Positions 22,731-39,964 of a stretch of 64,000 nt of DNA are shown here, in pieces; position 1 is the first letter of the stretch; each line of letters begins with the position of its first letter. The notes beneath the pieces are model-generated. The model was not told the DNA's origin. It made no database searches and worked only from the letters and a program-made list of their open reading frames with translations. Both the position numbers and the translations under genes were made by a program. Source of the DNA: Escherichia coli (GTDB taxonomy: Bacteria; Pseudomonadota; Gammaproteobacteria; Enterobacterales; Enterobacteriaceae); NCBI RefSeq assembly GCF_050320075.1, contig NZ_CP190018.1; one strand, written 5' to 3'.

Positions 22731-23330
22731 ATGCGTAAATTATGTGCTGTTATTCTGTCCACAGTAGTCTGGCTGGTCGCCGCTGGTACGCCAGCGAGCG
22801 CAGCAGAGCATCAGTCCACACTAAGCGCCGGGTATCTTCAGACCCATACTGATATGCCCGGCAACGATGACCTGAAGGGCATTAACGTGAAATACCGTTA
22901 TGAATTTACGGACACGCTGGGGCTGGTGACGTCATTCAGTTATGCCAATGCCAAAGATGAGCAAAAAACGCATTACAGCGATACCCGCTGGCATGAAGAT
23001 TCAGTGCGTAACCGCTGGTTCAGCATGATGGCGGGGCCGTCTGTACGCGTGAATGAATGGTTCAGTGCTTATGCGATGGCAGGTGTGGCTTACAGCCGTG
23101 TTTCGACTTTTTCCGGGGATTATCTCCGCGTAACTGACAGCAAGGGGAAAACGCACGATGTGCTGACCGGAAGTGATGACGGTCGCCACAGCAACACGTC
23201 TCTGGCGTGGGGGGCTGGCGTGCAGTTTAACCCGACCGAATCCGTGGCCATTGATATTGCTTATGAAGGTTCCGGCAGTGGCGACTGGCGCACTGACGGT
23301 TTCATCGTGGGTGTCGGTTATAAATTCTGA
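22731..23330 (+). CDS. lom: Lom outer-membrane protein (Ail/Lom family)
   Basis: 199 aa with signal peptide, beta-barrel-type sequence ending ...GVGYKF; lambda lom position. Confidence 0.9.
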   Translation: MRKLCAVILSTVVWLVAAGTPASAAEHQSTLSAGYLQTHTDMPGNDDLKGINVKYRYEFTDTLGLVTSFSYANAKDEQKTHYSDTRWHEDSVRNRWFSMMAGPSVRVNEWFSAYAMAGVAYSRVSTFSGDYLRVTDSKGKTHDVLTGSDDGRHSNTSLAWGAGVQFNPTESVAIDIAYEGSGSGDWRTDGFIVGVGYKF

Positions 23331-23357
23331 TTAGCCAGATAACACAGTGTTATGACA

Positions 23358-23383
23358 GCCCGCCGGTTCAGGCGGGCTTTTTT
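23358..23383 (+). terminator. hairpin plus T-run after lom
   Basis: gcccgcc-ggttca-ggcgggc followed by tttttt. Confidence 0.5.
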
Positions 23384-23388
23384 GTGGA

Positions 23389-25794
23389 GTGGATATGGCA
23401 GCAGTAAAAATCTCAGGTGTGCTGAAAGATGGTGCGGGAAAACCAATACAGAACTGCACTATTCAACTGAAGGCAAAGCGTAACAGCACCACGGTACTGG
23501 TGAACACGGTGGCCTCTGAAAATCCGGATGAAGCCGGGCGTTACAGCATGGATGTTGAGTATGGCCAGTACAGCGTCACCCTGCTGGTTGAAGGTTTTCC
23601 GCCTTCGCATGCCGGGAGCATTACCGTCTATGAAGGTTCCAGACCAGGTACGCTGAATGATTTTCTCGGTGCCATGACGGAAGAGGATGTCATGCCGGAG
23701 GCATTGCGCCGTTTTGAGGAAATGGTGGAAGAAGCGGCACGCAACGCCGAAGCCGCCTCTCAGAGCGCAGCGGCGGCAAAGAAATCCGAAACGGCTGCGG
23801 CATCATCGAAGAACGCGGCGAAAACCTCAGAAACGAATGCAGCTAATAGTGCACAGGCGGCAGCGACCTCAAAGACTGCATCGGCAAACTCCGCGACAGC
23901 AGCCAAAAAATCAGAAACCAACGCGAAAAATAGCGAGACAGCCGCAAAGACGAGCGAAACCAACGCAAAGTCCAGCCAGACGGCAGCGAAAACCAGCGAA
24001 ACGAATGCCAAAGCCAGTGAAACTGCGGCAAAAAACAGCCAGGTTGCAGCAGCCCAAAGCGAGAGCGCGGCAGCCGGTTCTGCGACTTCAGCAGCTGGAT
24101 CAGCAACTGCTGCGGCTAACAGCCAGAAAGCTGCGAAGACGAGTGAAACTAACGCAAAGTCCAGCCAGACGGCAGCGAAGACCAGCGAAACGAATGCCAA
24201 AGCCAGCGAAACTGCGGCGAAAAACAGCCAGGTTGCAGCAGCCCAAAGCGAGAGCGCGGCAGCTGGTTCTGCAAGCGCGGCGGCTGCTTCTGCCACTGCA
24301 TCAGCCAACAGTCAAAAAGCGGCAAAAACCAGTGAAACCAATGCAAAGACAAGCGAGACTGCAGCGGCGAACTCGGCGAAAGCATCGGCAGCAAGCCAGA
24401 CAGCAGCTAAAGCAAGTGAAGACGCAGCCAGAGAGTATGCAAGTCAGGCAGCAGAGCCGTATAAATATGTCTTACAGCCACTGCCTGATGTGTGGATACC
24501 GTTTAACGATTCACTGGATATGATTACGGGCTTTTCGCCGTCATATAAAAAAATTGTTATTGGTGATGATGAAATAACGATGCCTGGCGACAAGGTTGTT
24601 AAGTTTAAACGCGCATCAACTGCCACATATATCAATAAATCAGGCGTATTTAGTGTTGCTAAAATTGATGAGCCACGATTTGAAAAAGAAGGTTTATTGA
24701 TTGAAGGACAGCGCACTAACTATTTTGTTAAATCCAATACTCCCGCTGAATGGACGAGTACCAGCAATATCGATAAAACTAATAATGGTGTTGATGAATT
24801 TGGTTTTTCATATGCCAAAATGCGAACAAAAGATAATATGACAGGACAATCATCTGCACTTAGTCTGCATACATGCAGTGCATCCCGGGGGATTGATGTT
24901 AGTGGCGATAATAAGTATTGCACTGTTTCATGCAGGGTTAAAGCTCCTGATGGTCTTCGTTGTCGTTTGCGTTTTGAAAAATACGATGGGTCGGTTTATA
25001 CATTTTTAGGAGATGCTTATTTAACTTTCGGAACTCTGATAATAGAAAAAACTGGCGGAGCAGCCAATAGAATAGCAGCTACTGCAACTAAAGATCCGGT
25101 TACAGGGTGGATTTTCTATGAGGCAACTATAGAAGCTGTTGAAGGTGAAGCCTTAATTGGCGCAATGATTCAGTATGCGCCGAAAAAAGGTGGTATAACT
25201 GAAGCGGGAGATTATATTTACCTTGCAACACCACAATTTGAAAACGGCGGATGTGCTTCATCTTTTGTTATTACGACAACTGCACCCGCAACCCGCTCCA
25301 GTGATATGGTGACGATCCCAACTGAAAATAATATCTATAATAGACCGCTTACGTGTCTTGTCGAGGTCAATAGAAATTGGGGCGATATTCCTCCTAATGT
25401 AGCACCGCGTATTTTTGATTTTTCTGGTGTGCCACCTATTGAGTCAATTACATACGCTTTTAACACAACTGAGAAATATTACGGTCAGCTTTATATACAA
25501 ACTTATAAAGCGTTGACAAGTACTTACGTTTCTAGTGTGTTTGCTGGTCGAACTGATGTTCGAAAATTCATTGGTGGTTTTAATATTTATTCTGATGGTA
25601 CTAAACGAGTAGTTTCTAACGGTGAGGCTACTAAAACTATGAAAACGGAGTGGACGGGCGTAAAAACACGGACCTTTATTCGAATTGGAGGTCAAGCCAC
25701 ATCGGGAACTCGTCATCTATTCGGCCATTTGAGAAATCTTCGTCTCTGGCATAAAGAATTAACTGATGCGCAAATGGGGGAGAGTATTAAATGA
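23389..25794 (+). CDS. stf: side tail fibre protein (Stf-like), chimeric: lambda-like N-terminus, repeat shaft, AT-rich divergent C-terminal domain
   Basis: 801 aa; N-terminal ~100 aa match lambda Stf as recalled (MAVKISGVLKDG...); internal Ala/Ser/Thr/Lys repeats; composition shifts to AT-rich from about nt 24480. Confidence 0.85.
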   Translation: MDMAAVKISGVLKDGAGKPIQNCTIQLKAKRNSTTVLVNTVASENPDEAGRYSMDVEYGQYSVTLLVEGFPPSHAGSITVYEGSRPGTLNDFLGAMTEEDVMPEALRRFEEMVEEAARNAEAASQSAAAAKKSETAAASSKNAAKTSETNAANSAQAAATSKTASANSATAAKKSETNAKNSETAAKTSETNAKSSQTAAKTSETNAKASETAAKNSQVAAAQSESAAAGSATSAAGSATAAANSQKAAKTSETNAKSSQTAAKTSETNAKASETAAKNSQVAAAQSESAAAGSASAAAASATASANSQKAAKTSETNAKTSETAAANSAKASAASQTAAKASEDAAREYASQAAEPYKYVLQPLPDVWIPFNDSLDMITGFSPSYKKIVIGDDEITMPGDKVVKFKRASTATYINKSGVFSVAKIDEPRFEKEGLLIEGQRTNYFVKSNTPAEWTSTSNIDKTNNGVDEFGFSYAKMRTKDNMTGQSSALSLHTCSASRGIDVSGDNKYCTVSCRVKAPDGLRCRLRFEKYDGSVYTFLGDAYLTFGTLIIEKTGGAANRIAATATKDPVTGWIFYEATIEAVEGEALIGAMIQYAPKKGGITEAGDYIYLATPQFENGGCASSFVITTTAPATRSSDMVTIPTENNIYNRPLTCLVEVNRNWGDIPPNVAPRIFDFSGVPPIESITYAFNTTEKYYGQLYIQTYKALTSTYVSSVFAGRTDVRKFIGGFNIYSDGTKRVVSNGEATKTMKTEWTGVKTRTFIRIGGQATSGTRHLFGHLRNLRLWHKELTDAQMGESIK
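23945..24322 (+). repeat. two tandem ~189-bp (63-codon) near-identical repeats inside the stf shaft
   Basis: aacgcaaagtccagccagacggcagcgaa... recurs at 23962 and 24151; embedded in a longer array of shorter AAKTSETNAK-type units. Confidence 0.75.
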
Positions 25795-26072
25795 AAGATT
25801 TAACACTCAAATTTGCAGACAGGGCCGACTTTTCGGCCTTTATGGAGAGCATTGGCTATTATGATGACGAGTCGATGCAGGATGATATTCTTATTGACGT
25901 GATAGGTAATGTGTACAAAGAAACCGGAGAACTGACTGAAGATGGCGAACCGGTATGTGTTAAGGAAGACGGATATTTTGTAAACGTGCGCATCATTAAT
26001 GATTCGCAAATATCGTCAATATTCGATGAATACGTGGTTGCTGTTGAGCATCAACTTCGTGGCTGGATGTGA
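25791..26072 (+). CDS. acidic 93-aa hypothetical protein, translationally coupled to stf
   Basis: ATG overlaps stf stop (ATGA); AT-rich; no family recognised. Confidence 0.55.
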   Translation: MKDLTLKFADRADFSAFMESIGYYDDESMQDDILIDVIGNVYKETGELTEDGEPVCVKEDGYFVNVRIINDSQISSIFDEYVVAVEHQLRGWM

Positions 26073-26081
26073 GGAAGAAAA

Positions 26082-27122
26082 ATGGCTACATCGACAGTAA
26101 TTCCTGATGACATCAAAACGCTAAAATCCGACGTTAGCAAATTAAAAAACGATCAAGGAAGCTACGCAACAAAATTATATGTAGACAGCAAAGATGAAAT
26201 CGTTGGTGACTGGTCTGTTTCATGGTATCAGCAGGTATTGCCAACTAGCGGAGCTATATTTGGGAGAAAACTCCGCTCAACTCACAGGACGGCAGGTGTT
26301 GAGGATGCGTATTGCGAACTATACCTCAAAAAATGGATAGACAGTCCAGGTAACGCAATGGCGCGCCTTAACCTGAACGATAACGGGACAAACATTTGCT
26401 GGGACTTTACCAACCTTTATGGCGGTACGATGATTTTTCCCGGTGACAGCGGATACCTCAAAATGGGTAACTGCCTTATGTCATACAGCAAGCGTGGAAG
26501 TAACGCGCTTATTAAATTTGATTACACCGACACATTACAGATCAAATATGCCAATCATGGGTCAACCATGACATTAAACACACAGGGAACCGCTTATGCT
26601 GGTGTTACTGCTCAATTGTGGGGCAACTCCAGCCGTCCTGTTGTTTATGAAGTCGGTGTTGATGGTGGCGCTTATATGTTCTATGCGCAGAAAAATACCG
26701 ATAACACCTATATGTTAAGCGTTAATGGTGCATGTCATGCCACCGCATTTAACCAGCATTCCGACCGGGATCTGAAAGACAACATTCAGGTGATCGATAA
26801 TGCAACCGACCGCATCCGTAAAATGAACGGCTATACATACACGCTTAAAGAAAACGGTATGCCCTATGCTGGTGTCATTGCACAGGAAGCTCTGGAAGCA
26901 ATCCCAGAAGTTGTAGGTTCCGCAATGAAATATCAGGACGGTGCGAGCGGATCGGAAGGTGAAGAAGGTGAACGTTATTACACAGTAGATTATTCTGGTG
27001 TTACTGGCTTGCTTGTTCAGGTAGCCAGAGAGTCAGACGACAGAATAACAGCACTGGAAGAAGAAAACGCAGAATTAAGACAAAGATTATCTGCAATTGA
27101 TGCGGCGCTTGCGTCTAAATAA
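26082..27122 (+). CDS. tail-fibre-like protein with C-terminal intramolecular chaperone/self-cleaving domain (peptidase S74-like)
   Basis: 346 aa; good SD GAGGAAG before ATG; C-terminal ...NQHSDRDLKDNIQVIDNATDRIRKMNGYTYTLKENGMPYAGVIAQEALEAIPEVV... followed by a coiled-coil tail resembles the autoproteolytic chaperone domain of endosialidase/T5 L-shaped fibre proteins. Confidence 0.65.
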   Translation: MATSTVIPDDIKTLKSDVSKLKNDQGSYATKLYVDSKDEIVGDWSVSWYQQVLPTSGAIFGRKLRSTHRTAGVEDAYCELYLKKWIDSPGNAMARLNLNDNGTNICWDFTNLYGGTMIFPGDSGYLKMGNCLMSYSKRGSNALIKFDYTDTLQIKYANHGSTMTLNTQGTAYAGVTAQLWGNSSRPVVYEVGVDGGAYMFYAQKNTDNTYMLSVNGACHATAFNQHSDRDLKDNIQVIDNATDRIRKMNGYTYTLKENGMPYAGVIAQEALEAIPEVVGSAMKYQDGASGSEGEEGERYYTVDYSGVTGLLVQVARESDDRITALEEENAELRQRLSAIDAALASK

Positions 27123-27158
27123 TATTAAGGGGCCGAGCGCCCCGTTTTATTGGGTAGG

Positions 27159-27458
27159 ATGAAAATGGATATAACACCTTTCCTTCATGCGCTTTGTGCT
27201 GTGGCTGCGCAGCTACTGATTGGTCTTTTTACCGGGAACTGGGCTTACGGGGCGATAGCCGGTTGTACGTTCTTCATTGCGCGTGAACACACCCAGGCAG
27301 AATATCGCTGGATCGAAATGTTCGGGCATGGCAAGCGAATGAATATGCCGTGGTGGGGCGGTTTTGATCCACGCGCGTGGGATGTGGCAAGCCTGATGGA
27401 TTTTGCTGTGCCGGTGGTGGCGTGTCTGCTGGTCTGGCTGTTGGTTAATCGTGGGTGA
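27159..27458 (+). CDS. small hydrophobic membrane protein (2-3 predicted TM helices), function unknown
   Basis: Track ORF begins with TTG at 27150; ATG at 27159/27165 more plausible; hydrophobic stretches [16 protein letters not shown] and [15 protein letters not shown]. Confidence 0.5.
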
Positions 27459-27608
27459 AAAAAGGTGGGCTGTATATGCAACGGAGGAAGAAACCACGTT
27501 GCTGGAAGCCTGGAAGAAGTATCGGGTGTTGCTGAACCGTGTTAATACAACAACTGCACCGGATATTGAATGGCCAACAGTACCCATTATCGAATAGTGC
27601 ATTACGAA

Positions 27609-27650
27609 CTGCAGGATATTATATGGGATAATATTCTGCAGTTTATTGGG
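27609..27650 (+). terminator. 14-bp-stem hairpin plus T-rich tail ending the fibre-operon transcript
   Basis: ctgcaggatattat-atggg-ataatattctgcag then tttattgg. Confidence 0.4.
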
Positions 27651-27670
27651 GCTGTATTTTAAAAAGGTGT

Positions 27671-29002
27671 TTATTTTGAGTGAATTATCACCTTGTTTTT
27701 TCCGGTTCTTTTGGCTTGATATAACGCTTTGTCGGCATTGACTAACATTTCAGATGGACTGAGATTATTCTCTTTTGAAGCAAAGCAACCAATACTGACA
27801 GTTATTTTCTCAGGTCCATGCGATAATAATTTTTCCGAGCATTGCTCTTCAATGTTTTTTCTGATTCGCTCTGCAATTGATAGCAAGAGTTTTTGAGTAT
27901 TACCTTTAATGATAATACCGAACTCCTCACCGCCTAAGCGCCCTAATATATCCTCTTTCCTGATGGATTTTTTTATTATTCTGGTAACCATTACTATGAC
28001 TTGATCACCCATATGATGCCCCCATTTGTCATTGATGCTTTTGAAACTGTCAATATCTAACATTATTACTGAGAAATCATGGTGTTTTGATATATTCTTC
28101 AATGAGTCAATAAAGTATCTTCTATTGTATGTATTCGTTAGTGGATCATGAATTGCCATATGATTAGCATGATTTAATTTCCTGAAAACATAATACATGA
28201 GTGTTGAAATGATATAAATCATTGATATCAATTCAAGAAATTTTGTCATGTACCATGCAGGATGGGATTTATCAATAAAATACAATAAAATTAGATTATT
28301 GCATACTGACACTATACTAATAAGTATTATACACAACCATATTTTTGAGTAATTACGTATGCTGATGCATGAGCTGATAAGTAATACAAGCCAAAATACT
28401 GATATTATTTTGGTGTACACGATATTCCACGTCGACAAATGACGATTCAGCGAGTATTGTATAATATTAAGACTATATTTTATATGGTCACTGCTTAGAT
28501 TTTTTGCTACAAACGGAGTAATAAAAAGAATTAATATTGACAAAACAACAATTATTATGTTTCTTTTATCTTCTAAAATACTTTTATTTTTAACATTGGT
28601 GGAATAAACAGCCAGAAAGATTATAGATATAAAGCTGAACTGACGGAATAGATAATATATTGCGATATCATTTGATTTCTGATAGATTGTAGATAAATCG
28701 TTACCTAACGGAGATAAAGAAATAATAGCCACTTCTAATAAATAATACGTGTTGCTCAAAAACGCGAATGAAAGAATTAAGAGATAACTTTGTCTCTGAT
28801 TAGAAACATAGTAAAGCAATAGAAAAATAAAAATCATCAGGTTTATGAAAAAAAGCCCAATAATGAAAACACTATAACTTATTTGTGTTGTTTGTGTTAT
28901 GTATATTCCATTATTTTCATGCAGTAACAAAAATATAATAGAGATGCATGAAAATAAAAAGATGAAGATTTTTATTTTTATAGGTACCTGGTTGATAATC
29001 AT
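27671..29002 (-). CDS. membrane-anchored GGDEF-domain diguanylate cyclase (N-terminal polytopic membrane domain of unrecognised type)
   Basis: 443 aa; SD AGGTG 6 nt upstream; C-terminal GGDEF motifs incl. RKEDILGRLGGEEF (I-site RxxD + GGEEF); about 8 hydrophobic helices N-terminal; extremely AT-rich. Confidence 0.85.
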   Translation of the reverse strand: MIINQVPIKIKIFIFLFSCISIIFLLLHENNGIYITQTTQISYSVFIIGLFFINLMIFIFLLLYYVSNQRQSYLLILSFAFLSNTYYLLEVAIISLSPLGNDLSTIYQKSNDIAIYYLFRQFSFISIIFLAVYSTNVKNKSILEDKRNIIIVVLSILILFITPFVAKNLSSDHIKYSLNIIQYSLNRHLSTWNIVYTKIISVFWLVLLISSCISIRNYSKIWLCIILISIVSVCNNLILLYFIDKSHPAWYMTKFLELISMIYIISTLMYYVFRKLNHANHMAIHDPLTNTYNRRYFIDSLKNISKHHDFSVIMLDIDSFKSINDKWGHHMGDQVIVMVTRIIKKSIRKEDILGRLGGEEFGIIIKGNTQKLLLSIAERIRKNIEEQCSEKLLSHGPEKITVSIGCFASKENNLSPSEMLVNADKALYQAKRTGKNKVIIHSK

Positions 29003-29594
29003 GTACGCACCTGAGAATGATATATATATAATATGTATCGCTACAAATAACGATAATTTCTTACTGGTGATAGTATACTATTATTCTGGTTAATCGCTGT
29101 CAAATTGATGATTTTGGTTAGTATTGCAATAGCGAAGGGTTTGATCCGGTAAGACTGGCTAGGCAAGGCTATACCAAAAAATCAGTGTAGGTTCAGAAAA
29201 CGATGCACCATACAATCATCAATAATTTCAAATTGTCCATTGTGCATAAATCATAAAGAAAACCGCAGCACGTCGTATGCAAGAACGTGCTGCGGTTGGC
29301 TGGTGAGCTTTCGATAGTGCGAGTATTGAATGATTTCCAGACGTTACCGATTTTATATAACTGCAGTGGAATTATTCAACACACAGGCAAAACGGAATAA
29401 GCTGAGAAAAAAGCGTGCTTTCCCAATCTGGGGCAAATCACGTCTGAATGACACCTGAAAACAGGTGGTAGCCTCAAGAAGGCTTGGAATATTCTTCTTT
29501 AATGTTATGTAATTCATTGATTTTTCTTGTACGATTTTAAGACATTTATTCCAAGAAAAATTTTTAACTCTTTGATTTTTCGACTCTGTATCAT

Positions 29595-35661: not shown

Positions 35662-36513
35662 TTAACTCGAGTAAGCGGCCAGCATTTCCTGCGCCGCCAG
35701 TTTACCCAACGCATTCGCTGCGAAAGGACTGTCGCCGGTGAGAACTTTACGGTCCTTATGTACTCGCCCGGTGATGTCGTCATTAATAATGTTCATGCAC
35801 ATTTTCTTCAGCTCTTCGCCGAAGTACCAGGTGAGATGACCCGGCATATAGCCTATCTCTGGCGTTTGTTTGTCTGCGGCGTCTGGGAATGCGCAAATGG
35901 AATAACCATTCAGTGGGTTATCGCCGTGGCGAAGTGCCAGAAAAGCCGCCGGACCGTGGCAAAGGGATATAACAAAACGGTCATTTTTGATTGCCCACTG
36001 TAAAGCGGCAGCCACGTCCTGGCTTTCTGGTAAACCAATAAGTGCGCCATGACCACCAGGAACAAAGATTGCTGCATATTCGCTGTCAGCGTTGAGGCTG
36101 GCGACAACATCCGCGAGTTTATTCGGATTGCGGAACAACGATTTATGCTGCTCAAAGAATGGCATTACTTTTTCATCTTTGTGTGGCATAGCCCAGTATT
36201 CAAACTTGGTCATCAGACCGGAAATGGTCGCCACTTCGAATTCGAAACCTGCAGCATGGAGATGATACAACGGCAGCAACGTTTCAATCGGATGGTTACC
36301 GGTCGAAAACAGTTTGCCGTTATCGGTCGGCAAATAACGTTCGTCCGCGGCGATCACCAGAATTTTATGTTTACCACGATAAGGTTTTGGGTAGTCCACG
36401 CCATCAAGATCAGAGACAGGACTAGTATATTGGCTAAGCGAATATTCTGAAGGGAAGAATGCATTATCTTCAGCAATATCGACCTGCGGATTTTTACTTG
36501 TTTGAACAGTCAT
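35662..36513 (-). CDS. hchA: Hsp31 glyoxalase/protein deglycase HchA
   Basis: 283 aa, DJ-1/PfpI family sequence. Confidence 0.95.
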   Translation of the reverse strand: MTVQTSKNPQVDIAEDNAFFPSEYSLSQYTSPVSDLDGVDYPKPYRGKHKILVIAADERYLPTDNGKLFSTGNHPIETLLPLYHLHAAGFEFEVATISGLMTKFEYWAMPHKDEKVMPFFEQHKSLFRNPNKLADVVASLNADSEYAAIFVPGGHGALIGLPESQDVAAALQWAIKNDRFVISLCHGPAAFLALRHGDNPLNGYSICAFPDAADKQTPEIGYMPGHLTWYFGEELKKMCMNIINDDITGRVHKDRKVLTGDSPFAANALGKLAAQEMLAAYSS

Positions 36514-37024
36514 AGTGTATTCCTTATTGTTGCTTAGTTAGGGTAGTCACTATATTTGCGACTGAGCTGGTCGCTATTTTTAACCAGGCTGGAAAATTGA
36601 GTCAATATATCGAAAGCGGTAGTCGGCGGGTGTAAGTATGTAATGATGATGCTGCACTGGTGTTGAATATTATTCACGCCAAATTTTCCTTATTGAGCAA
36701 CGTCGTCGCAAGTGGCCTCAATGATTTTAGACCATTATCAGAGGTCCGGGGCGGCAGGGAGAGATTTAGTGCTGTGGAATATTGTGGTGCTGATGAATAT
36801 TTATATCCCGGATTGGTAGAGAAAAAGCTTTTTCCATGCACTTTTTTTGCAAATATTTCTGTATGGGAGGCGGTTTTGTTGCAGATTAATTCATAAAGAA
36901 ATGCATTTGGGTGTTGGCTGGAAGAGTCGCGGGTAGATGTTATTGTGCCAGCAGGGGCAGGGTAAGGTACTGTATCGATATGCTTTGGCAATTGCATGTG
37001 CCGCAGAGGGAGATGAAATGCCAA

Positions 37025-37062
37025 TAAAAAAGCCTGAGTTCGATGAGGGACGAACTCAGGCT
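37025..37062 (-). terminator. hairpin terminator downstream of the porin gene
   Basis: agcctgagttcg-loop-cgaactcaggct with T-run on the minus strand. Confidence 0.5.
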
Positions 37063-37104
37063 AGTGTTAACTTTTACAGTAACACGCCGCGGCGCGTTGG
37101 CTGA

Positions 37105-38298
37105 TTAGAACTGGTAGACTAAGCCCACAGCAACGATATCATCGGTAGCGATGCCGTTTGCTTTGTAGAAGTCGTCGTCGTTGTCCAGCAGGTTGATTTT
37201 GTAATCAACGTAGGTGGACATGTTTTTGTTGAAGTAGTAAGTCGCACCAATATCAACGTATTTAACCAGATCTTTATTGGTGTAACGTGGGTCGCCGTTG
37301 CCGTCATGAGCCCAACCACCTAAATCCTTACCTTTAGATTGCAGGTAAGCGATGGACGGGCGTAGGCCGAAGTCGAACTGATACTGAGCAACAACTTCAA
37401 AGTTTTGGGTTTTGTTCGCAATACCACCTCTGTCAATGTCGTTATTGTCTTTTCCGCTGCCATATGCAGTCATATTACGTGTTTCTGCATACATTGCCGC
37501 TAAATAGACATTATTCGCATCATATTTAGCACCGACTGTCCATGCTTCAGCTGTTTCACCACCAGCATATTTATTCGAGCGTTGCTCACCTAAACCAGTA
37601 GCACGTTGGTTATCAGTACGGTCAGAGTTTGAATATGCAGCCCCGAGGCTTAACCCGAAGTCAAAGTCATAGGAAGTGGACATACCGAAACCGTCACCAT
37701 TTTCTTTAGACAGTTTACGATTATTACCATTACCAGAACCTTCTTGATCCCAAAGCCCACCCGATCCTTCATTATTACCCTGATATTGCAGAGCAAAGTT
37801 CAGGCCATCGACCTGACCAAAGAAGCCATTGTTACGGTAGGTTGCAACACCATTAGCACGACCGTTCAGGAAGTTGTCGGCACCAGCATAGGTATCGCCA
37901 CCAAATTCTGGCAGCATATCGGTCCATGCTTCAATGTCATATACGACACCGTAGTTACGACCATAGTCGAAAGTACCATTCTGACCAAAGCCTAAACCTG
38001 CAAATGCCAGACGCGTTGCGGGATTACCTTTGTCGCTTTCAGGACCGTTTGCGCCAATGTTAAATTCCCACTGACCATAACCAGTGAATTGGTCAGCGAT
38101 CTGAGTTTCACCTTTGAAACCGATACGGGCATATGACATGTCGCCATCGCTGCCAGCATCATCAGAGAAGTAGTGCAGGCCCGCTACTTTTCCGTACAAA
38201 TCCAGTTTATTACCATCTTTATTATAGACTTCAGCCGCATTTGCTGCGCCAGCAACTAATAACGCCGGGACCAGCATTGCCAGAACTTTTCTTTTCAT
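37105..38298 (-). CDS. yedS: OmpC/PhoE-family general porin (yedS-type), apparently intact
   Basis: Starts [27 protein letters not shown]..., ends ...GLVYQF; track ORF extends 10 codons upstream. Confidence 0.85.
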
Positions 38299-38845
38299 TA
38301 TGTATTCCCTTGTGATTATAATCTTCATGAATATATCAATAAGTGCCGTTATCCAAAAAAAAGCACATTTGGATACTATTCTATGAAGTTCATTTTATTT
38401 TAAAGATTACATGTAACAAATATATTTAAAAGATTTCAAAATGTTTCTAATCTATTTAATATAATTCAGAATTATGAATTCTAAATATAAATATTCATGA
38501 AAATTATAAATGTATATCAATATGTTATGAGTTGAGCGGAAACATAGGGGGTATCAATGATTGTTGCGCCAAACGGCTGGTGTGATCACGCGCACATTAA
38601 TGAAGGCATAAAAAAAGCCGGCATCATGCCGGCCCAAAAAAAATAAACAAGACGATAAAAGGCTAATAACGGAAGCATCATGACACAGAATAATAAAAAG
38701 GTATAATTGTAATCAGTGCTAATATATTGATTGAATGAATTAATAAAGCCGATATCAAAGATAAATAAAATCGCTCAAAACGATTTTTCCTGTATTCACT
38801 GCCGTTGCGCAAAAATTATCTATTTGTTCAAAAAATGATTGAGTC

Positions 38846-39229
38846 TTGACTGGCTCATCCAATGTGGAAAAATGTGACTTTTATCACATAATAGTACTAA
38901 GTCTGAATTTTCCGGGTTATCTCAAAATGGAATACGGTTCGACAAAGATGGAAGAGAGACTCTCTCGCAGCCCTGGCGGCAAATTGGCTTTGTGGGCTTT
39001 CTATACATGGTGTGGCTATTTCGTCTGGGCAATGGCGCGTTACATCTGGGTGATGAGCCGGATCCCTGATGCCCCGGTGTCGGGATTTGAAAGCGATTTA
39101 GGCTCTACCGCGGGAAAGTGGTTAGGGGCACTGGTCGGATTTTTATTTATGGCTCTGGTCGGGGCATTGTTAGGCAGCATTGCCTGGTATACCCGACCTC
39201 GTCCCGCACGTAGCAGACGCTATGAATAA
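38846..39229 (+). CDS. yedR: inner membrane protein YedR
   Basis: Two hydrophobic helices; start codon uncertain (an internal GTG or Met is possible). Confidence 0.7.
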   Translation: MTGSSNVEKCDFYHIIVLSLNFPGYLKMEYGSTKMEERLSRSPGGKLALWAFYTWCGYFVWAMARYIWVMSRIPDAPVSGFESDLGSTAGKWLGALVGFLFMALVGALLGSIAWYTRPRPARSRRYE

Positions 39230-39268
39230 AAACTGCTAAGGTTGCGACTCTTTGGCAACGGAGCGCGT

Positions 39269-39964
39269 ATGGACTTACAACACTGGCAGACACAGTTCGA
39301 AAACTGGTTGAAAAACCATCATCAGCACCAGGACGCGGCCCATGACGTATGTCATTTTCGCCGCGTCTGGGCTACGGCACAGAAGCTGGCGGCAGATGAC
39401 GATGTCGATATGCTGGTGATTTTAACCGCCTGTTATTTTCACGATATTGTGAGCCTGGCGAAAAATCATCCGCAACGGCAGCGTTCTTCAATCCTGGCGG
39501 CAGAAGAGACGCGTCGCCTGCTCCGTGAAGAGTTCGTGCAATTTCCGGCGGAGAAAATCGAGGCCGTTTGTCATGCCATTGCCGCTCACAGTTTCAGCGC
39601 GCAAATCGCCCCCTTAACAACGGAAGCTAAAATCGTCCAGGATGCGGATCGGCTGGAAGCCCTGGGTGCGATTGGCCTGGCGCGCGTGTTTGCTGTTTCA
39701 GGGGCATTGGGCGTGGCGCTGTTTGATGGTGAAGATCCGTTCGCACAGCATCGCCCGCTTGATGATAAACGCTACGCGCTGGATCATTTCCAGACTAAGT
39801 TGCTGAAGCTACCGCAAACCATGCAAACCGCAAGAGGCAAGCAGCTGGCGCAGCACAACGCGCAATTTTTAGTCGAGTTTATGGCGAAGCTCAGTGCCGA
39901 ACTGGCGGGGGAGAATGAAGGTGTCGATCACAAGGTGATAGATGCGTTTTCACCCGCGGGCTGA
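39269..39964 (+). CDS. yedJ: HD-domain phosphohydrolase YedJ
   Basis: 231 aa from [10 protein letters not shown]...; HD motif. Confidence 0.9.

Follow-up and report, generated by a model that had tools for sequence, protein, structure and literature searches.

An intact allele of the yedS porin gene of Escherichia coli, at a locus where four divergent allele classes share one promoter and signal peptide

Results

The window, a 64,000-nt stretch of Escherichia coli DNA, carries a minus-strand open frame at 37105..38328 (407 aa) in which an internal ATG at 38298 yields a 397-aa protein beginning MKRKVLAM. The coding sequence is placed at 37105..38298 (397 codons plus stop) and specifies a 376-aa mature porin of an OmpC/OmpN-like allele family, called class A below. 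This start is backed by a Shine-Dalgarno sequence read from the DNA, AAGGGA, at 38306..38311 on the minus strand and 7 nt before the ATG, and by an OmpC-like signal peptide ending ANA/AE. Citrobacter orthologues, which have no upstream ATG, support the same start, and the AAGG of the Shine-Dalgarno sequence is kept in Escherichia, Citrobacter and Superficieibacter. A terminator scan placed an intrinsic terminator with a 12-bp stem and a T-run at 37031..37062 (minus strand), 43 nt past the stop codon; having a Shine-Dalgarno sequence and a terminator to itself, the gene constitutes a monocistronic unit. A stretch of 2,387 bp around the porin gene is 100% identical to E. coli Ec-U3, in which PGAP annotates a CDS at the same coordinates (WP_106475183.1).

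The order of genes is hprR, hprS, hchA, the porin gene, rseX, drpB (yedR), yedJ, dcm, vsr and yedA, an order that identifies the yedS locus of E. coli. The placement between hchA and rseX-drpB-yedJ-dcm is collinear with the yedS fragments of K-12, and the same arrangement is present in E. albertii and E. whittamii. The PGAP product name in Ec-U3, 'porin OmpC', would instead make this gene simply the canonical osmoporin gene ompC, and the NCBIfam OmpC model NF007841 does score the protein above its cut-off (546.8 versus 484 bits). However, NF007841 is a subfamily model on which canonical OmpC scores 771.6, and the window protein is only 63% identical to canonical OmpC by BLASTP. The canonical gene lies in the context apbE-ompC-micF-rcsD, a setting different from that of the window gene, which has hchA on one side and rseX/drpB on the other; no MicF gene was found by Rfam within 36000-39500. 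Genomic context and sequence identity thus refute the canonical OmpC identity, to which we attach virtually no probability. Membership of the OmpN/OmpK37/OmpS2 group was likewise rejected, as the window has rseX rather than micC and the protein is 67% identical to OmpN.

Because the Pfam Porin_1 profile (PF00267) matches over the full length, with 476.4 bits (threshold 23.7; E = 7.6e-143) across residues 27-397 and profile positions 1-337 of 337, 37105-38298 is not a chance ORF. A phmmer comparison with PDB sequences gave OmpK37 as the best match (E = 6.5e-147), then OmpK36 and OmpC, then OmpK35, PhoE and OmpF, and alignment with the mature chains of solved porins begins at query residue 22. 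The 21-aa signal peptide (codons at 38236..38298, minus strand) ends AGAANA, precedes a mature start AEVYNK, resembles that of OmpC and is invariant in 10 of 10 E. coli alleles aligned. An AF2 model built on a 104-sequence alignment reached pLDDT 88.8 and pTM 0.87 with 16 strands; it superseded a model from only 12 sequences that was unusable at pLDDT 49. Foldseek placed the model closest to OmpK37 of Klebsiella pneumoniae (PDB 6v78; 64% identity, TM 0.95), with E. coli OmpC at 60% identity and TM 0.96; across OmpK37, OmpC, OmpK36 and OmpF, TM ranged from 0.94 to 0.97 and rmsd from 1.5 to 2.7. The 16-stranded barrel looked for by structure prediction was thereby recovered. The protein ends in GLVYQF with a terminal aromatic Phe and has the PEFGG motif in the L3 constriction loop. 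Its pore-lining residues, with the basic ones on the barrel wall, are conserved: in the alignment of alleles K37, R147 and D121 do not vary, and R58, R96 and E131 hardly do. Surface loops L4-L7 are unusually long and hold the roughly 30 residues by which the protein exceeds OmpC. The gene encodes a Sec-exported, 16-stranded beta-barrel general porin, for which trimer formation and non-specific channel conductance are predicted by membership of the porin family. The original prediction of an uninterrupted 397-aa porin ORF with a signal peptide was borne out by the list of open reading frames, the Ec-U3 CDS and the full-length Pfam match, and its yedS-type, OmpC-family assignment by locus context and porin family profiles.

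The DNA upstream of the gene had been described as a region of about 550 bp, 38299-38845, rich in AT. Its composition was confirmed: GC content is 29.1% over these 547 bp, compared with 50.8% for the window as a whole, a value in the bottom ~1% among stretches of that size. It falls to 22.1% in the core at 38299-38470; the coding sequence itself has 46%. The region is not a single promoter, since it contains rseX with its own terminator, and its extent needs correction: because 38846 is merely the mechanical TTG start of an ORF, the true intergenic span reaches the start of drpB, which maps from the identical genome Ec-U3 to window position 38948. Like yedS, the gene for the Hfq-binding sRNA RseX is encoded on the minus strand; it occupies 38610..38699 and matches Rfam RF01401 over model positions 1-94 of 94 with 95.1 bits (gathering threshold 50, E = 5.5e-13). 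A terminator scan placed its terminator at 38615-38635 on that strand, and 311 bp separate this terminator from the yedS ATG. Presence of rseX at the yedS locus is confined to Escherichia. The rseX gene was missed in the first reading of the sequence and is also unannotated by PGAP in Ec-U3.

Conservation of the upstream DNA was followed in an alignment of 11 sequences from E. coli (three allele classes), E. albertii, E. whittamii, three Citrobacter and Superficieibacter. Across genera it was strong only over the proximal ~170 bp, and the core yedS promoter and 5′ UTR were delimited on this basis at 38299..38470 (minus strand), conserved in three genera. A scan for the σ70 consensus was not above chance in this AT-rich DNA (11 sites versus 7.0 ± 3.1 expected), and the promoter was therefore assigned from conservation between genera. 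Within the conserved core, a candidate −10 element, TAGAAT, lies at 38378-38383 (minus strand), downstream of four OmpR-like half-sites phased at 10 bp, GAAACATTTT, GAAATCTTTT, AAATATATTT and GTTACATGTA, at 38408..38447 on the minus strand and kept in 11 of 11 aligned sequences. The 11-mer ACATTTTGAAA, the core of these half-sites, has a single copy each in the window and upstream of ompC, the latter lying within the 20-mer TTTACATTTTGAAACATCTA, which we take to be the OmpR C1 box. OmpR may bind at 38408-38447.

Just downstream of the rseX terminator, a CRP-like site, TGTGATCACGCGCACA, was read from the sequence at 38581..38596 and is conserved within Escherichia; its K-12 equivalent, ggTGTGAtcaggcGCACAtta, is among in-vitro footprints, labelled 'yedS' (PMC12871828). 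Sequence at 38700..38947 was assigned to the rseX promoter and the divergent drpB promoter region, and in the drpB promoter a palindromic CRP site, TGTGATAAAAGTCACA, at 38873-38888 corresponds to a further K-12 in-vitro footprint (PMC12871828). The AT-rich upstream DNA is therefore a composite of the core promoter and UTR, the CRP-like site, rseX and the divergent drpB promoter. Among regulators catalogued elsewhere, PgrR SELEX lists 'yedX/yedS', although these two genes are not adjacent.

In K-12 the gene at the same place (yedS_1/2/3) is flagged 'frameshifted; internal stop' and is 93.6% identical over 2.4 kb. Alignment located its lesions at codon 162, where CAG has become TAG (window 37813-37815), and at gene nt 666, where 1 bp is deleted (window ~37633). 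Neither the stop nor the 1-bp deletion of K-12 is present in the window gene; both the description of yedS as a pseudogene in K-12 and the claim that this copy is uninterrupted were upheld. The state of the locus was surveyed in 20 complete E. coli genomes, obtained by taking every second match from a listing spaced evenly over 5,431 E. coli records, and each intact call was re-translated independently. An intact porin of 352-404 aa was present in 12 of the 20; four carried a point, frameshift or IS1 lesion, two a partial deletion, and in two the region was absent. An intact gene is thus usual in E. coli, and the difference from K-12 is unremarkable in itself. Intact relatives are also frequent in the protein database, where P0030 is found on at least 1,000 contigs; another relative, P0004, shares 98% identity with the window protein and is found on 106.

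Inactivation is concentrated in one allele class. Lesions were present in 7 of 11 sampled class-A genomes and represent at least five independent events (stop plus frameshift, 11-bp deletion, 1-bp deletion, nonsense codon and IS1), whereas 11 of 12 sampled non-A genomes were intact. The frequent inactivation of class-A alleles implies that the gene is dispensable. It also fits a reading in which the window ORF is intact but cryptic, never expressed, still open only by chance and decaying toward the pseudogene state seen in K-12 and O157:H7; that the region is silenced by H-NS in K-12 and that antibodies against YedS are rare in humans (recombinant YedS was recognised by 1 of 141 human sera; PMC11242715) point in the same direction. 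Codon comparisons argue otherwise. When the window allele was compared with class-A relatives in E. coli, E. albertii, E. whittamii and Citrobacter, dN/dS was 0.01-0.07 in the barrel, turns and L3 versus 0.11-0.42 in external loops, and amino-acid differences within class A were 29% in loops versus 2% in strands. Judged from these sequences, the barrel is under strong purifying selection, and the contrast between loops and barrel is the signature predicted for an expressed, surface-exposed protein. Core promoter, Shine-Dalgarno sequence and signal peptide are conserved across genera, and intact class-A proteins are found on hundreds of contigs, P0004 being one example. In addition, a functional YedS affecting carbapenem susceptibility in a carbapenem-resistant clinical isolate is attributed to Warner et al. 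2013 (AAC 57:1935) in two citing papers (PMC4048246, PMC11267920). A dead, cryptic ORF is therefore considered an unlikely description of the window gene, which is better read as a functional allele in its intact state.

Comparison of alleles across the species revealed four classes at this one locus, with proteins 59-94% identical to the window protein. Among 5,426 complete genomes, class A (window and K-12; OmpC/OmpN-like) was represented in 1,661, class A2 (the L008 type, nearest to the syntenic Enterobacter porin) in 366, class B in 1,528 and class C in 1,140, the last two matching OmpK35 and the OmpF model best. Alleles at least 99% identical to that of the window occur in at most 60 of these genomes. 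Nucleotide diversity is 0.5% in the 5′ UTR and signal peptide (38228-38376), 20-37% over the codons of the mature protein and ~4% directly past the stop codon, so that the class boundaries coincide with the signal-peptide junction and the stop codon. The yedS locus is thus a hotspot of allele replacement, with at least four divergent classes behind a shared promoter and signal peptide that do not vary. In the sampled genomes, repeated knock-out affects the long-looped class A, whereas the other classes are almost always intact.

Such divergence could mean that the porin and its AT-rich flank were recently acquired by horizontal transfer, for example from Salmonella, which would explain both low GC and xenogeneic silencing by H-NS. 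The region is indeed AT-rich, dS between E. coli alleles is very high (0.19-0.44), 'possible Salmonella origins' are mentioned in PMC8313858, and the L008-type class shares 80% identity with the syntenic porin of Enterobacter hormaechei versus 73% with the window allele. Yet a porin gene lies beside (drpB)-yedJ-dcm in at least seven genera (Escherichia, Citrobacter, Superficieibacter, Enterobacter, Lelliottia, Buttiauxella and Trabulsiella), and the AT-richness is limited to regulatory DNA, the CDS being 46% GC. In a simple neighbour-joining tree without bootstrap, class A grouped with the syntenic Citrobacter and Superficieibacter genes, as vertical descent predicts, class A2 with the syntenic Enterobacter and Trabulsiella genes, and classes B and C on the OmpF side. 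Given this synteny and the grouping of class A, the locus looks ancestral, and it would be the allele that moves and gets replaced. Recent acquisition of porin and flank together is accordingly regarded as improbable, marginally more so than a cryptic ORF.

Possible control of yedS by small RNAs was examined with RNAduplex, limited to sRNA seed regions and the initiation region of the mRNA, as folding of full-length sRNA-mRNA pairs had given giant, meaningless duplexes; the RybB and MicF sequences used were verified, that of RybB by Rfam. The 5′ domain of RybB is predicted to pair at 38278..38295 (minus strand), corresponding to mRNA +4..+21 and codons 2-7, with −17.2 kcal/mol (z −3.6; 5 of 1000 shuffles reach this value). 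This is comparable to the known targets ompC (−17.4 kcal/mol) and ompF (−21.1 kcal/mol), and RybB may accordingly recognise yedS within codons 2-7. In the 2013 work of Warner, MicF is said to control YedS. Pairing in the manner of ompF was rejected, as the MicF 5′ end did not pair with the yedS initiation region (z +1.2 versus −4.7 for the ompF control). For RseX, the known target ompC did not stand out in this crude duplex test.

Discussion

The gene at 37105-38298 is yedS (ompS1 in another notation), here in an intact allele; yedS is the third E. coli locus for a general-diffusion porin of OmpC type. Taken jointly with the regulation and channel role proposed below, this reading is considered very probable. 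The gene is already known, and intactness is its usual condition. Among described systems the closest is E. coli YedS itself: the K-12 copy lies at the same locus, belongs to the same allele class and has 90-95% nucleotide identity; signal peptide, Shine-Dalgarno sequence and core promoter are identical to those of the window, and loops L4-L6 differ. OmpC shares the fold, the PEFGG eyelet, the OmpR-box core and an almost identical signal peptide, but differs in sequence, in its locus with the divergent micF and in being abundant where YedS is probably silent. OmpK37, OmpN and YedS are alike in being minor porins with an adjoining sRNA gene. The loci are nevertheless different, as ompN adjoins micC (L093 and L089; E. 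coli, E. whittamii) and yedS adjoins rseX, and YedS has about 20-30 extra residues in L4-L7 relative to OmpK37 and OmpN.

The regulatory parallel lies with OmpS1 of Salmonella, a quiescent porin for which silencing by H-NS and StpA, antagonism by LeuO and dependence on OmpR have been modelled (PMC4264507). Salmonella ompS1 and yedS are alike in AT-rich regulatory DNA, OmpR-like boxes and, probably, silence under laboratory conditions, and the window gene has the AT-rich regulatory region characteristic of quiescent porins. The name equivalence 'yedS (ompS1)' in PMC2731931 suggests that the two genes may be orthologous. None of the 80 loci listed in the homologous-locus search was that of Salmonella ompS1, and the rseX gene of the window locus is restricted to Escherichia. 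In hns/stpA mutants of K-12, derepression extends to RseX 'and surrounding areas' (PMC8313858), an observation in keeping with the original prediction that the yedS promoter is of the type silenced by nucleoid proteins. A 2.5-fold decrease of yedS(ompS1) on σE induction has also been recorded (PMC2731931).

A working model can be proposed from these observations. By analogy with Salmonella ompS1, H-NS and StpA bound to the AT-rich DNA would keep yedS silent under laboratory conditions, and once this silencing is lifted, transcription would proceed from an OmpR-type porin promoter through the four phased OmpR-like half-sites. Under envelope stress, the σE-dependent sRNA RybB might shut off the yedS mRNA by pairing at codons 2-7. 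The neighbouring RseX represses ompA and ompC and could thereby shift porin composition toward YedS, in analogy to the pairs ompC-micF and ompN-micC. YedS, when made, would serve as an alternative diffusion channel and as an alternative surface for phages and antibodies; this would be consistent with variation concentrated in the loops and with how often class A is lost.

The class pattern at the locus is itself an observation, and selection rather than neutral recombination may maintain it. One possible explanation, to which we give somewhat less than even weight, is a long-lived polymorphism of porin 'cassettes', exchanged by recombinational allele replacement and held by balancing or frequency-dependent selection that phages, colicins or immunity would exert on a normally silent porin.

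For annotators, the label 'porin OmpC' is generic; the gene is really yedS and this copy is intact. That an extra functional porin can alter entry of beta-lactams and carbapenems once OmpC and OmpF are lost is already appreciated, as is its potential as another target for phages or antibodies. The allele pattern may help to explain the use of the yedS-yedR intergenic region as a marker of host source (PMC11267920). The cassette-like structure of the alleles is the only part that perhaps deserves a separate study at the population level, and four classes behind one promoter, together with the recurrent loss of class A, could be of interest to those concerned with the host range of porin-dependent phages, with vaccines and with outer membrane permeability.

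An sRNA gene and regulatory sites between yedS and drpB

The AT-rich sequence that the original prediction treated as the yedS upstream region contains the rseX sRNA gene, located at 38610-38699 on the minus strand of the window. No annotation for rseX was made by PGAP in the identical genome of E. coli Ec-U3. Within Escherichia, the gene was found in E. coli, E. albertii and also E. whittamii; in Citrobacter, Enterobacter and the remaining genera that were compared, the syntenic locus lacks it.

The best match to the sigma-70 consensus in this region (ATGACA-16-TATAAT, 11/12) is on the plus strand at 38680-38707; it is directed toward drpB and lies antisense to the rseX 5′ end. This element could be a drpB promoter, or it could drive antisense transcription through the promoter of rseX. 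Two CRP-type sites were also identified. The first, TGTGATCACGCGCACA (38581-38596), is just downstream of the rseX terminator. The proposed start of yedS is about 210 bp farther downstream from this site, a distance too great for classical activation of the yedS promoter. The second, TGTGATAAAAGTCACA (38873-38888), lies within the drpB promoter and forms an almost perfect palindrome. A K-12 footprint table has entries matching both sites (PMC12871828).

The lowest-GC stretch of the window lies elsewhere, at 28451-28750 (25.7% GC), inside a gene for a sensor-domain diguanylate cyclase (about 27671-29002). This gene is carried by a lambdoid prophage remnant beyond zinT, at approximately 22,900-29,400 as positioned from the Ec-U3 annotation (locus L103), which also contains a Lom/Ail-family protein, tail-fibre genes and a capsid fragment.

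Inactivation of the locus in other E. coli

Among the O157:H7-type genomes sampled (E. coli O157:H7 and relatives; loci L005, L106 and L107), drpB and yedS are both annotated as frameshifted, indicating that both divergent genes of the intergenic region are broken in that lineage. IS1 interrupts the class B porin gene in strains ABWA45 and HZ13 (database matches H49 and H50) and the class A porin gene in FACU 2024 (locus L007). Since these insertions fall in different allele classes, IS1 is a recurrent route of inactivation at the yedS locus.

The hchA flank

Between yedS and hchA lies a 591-bp spacer (36514-37104) that shows a strong GC skew, must contain the hchA promoter, and in the window holds no convincing gene. 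Small hypothetical proteins are annotated in this spacer in some RefSeq genomes, and in E. coli E69 (locus L022, 5186-6252) it extends to about 1,070 bp and includes an additional ORF of 134 aa on the opposite strand. In Citrobacter, Superficieibacter, Buttiauxella and others (loci L027-L039 and L076), one or two tRNA genes occur within 1-4 kb after the syntenic porin, in the place of hchA-hprSR, so this flank with hchA is specific to Escherichia.
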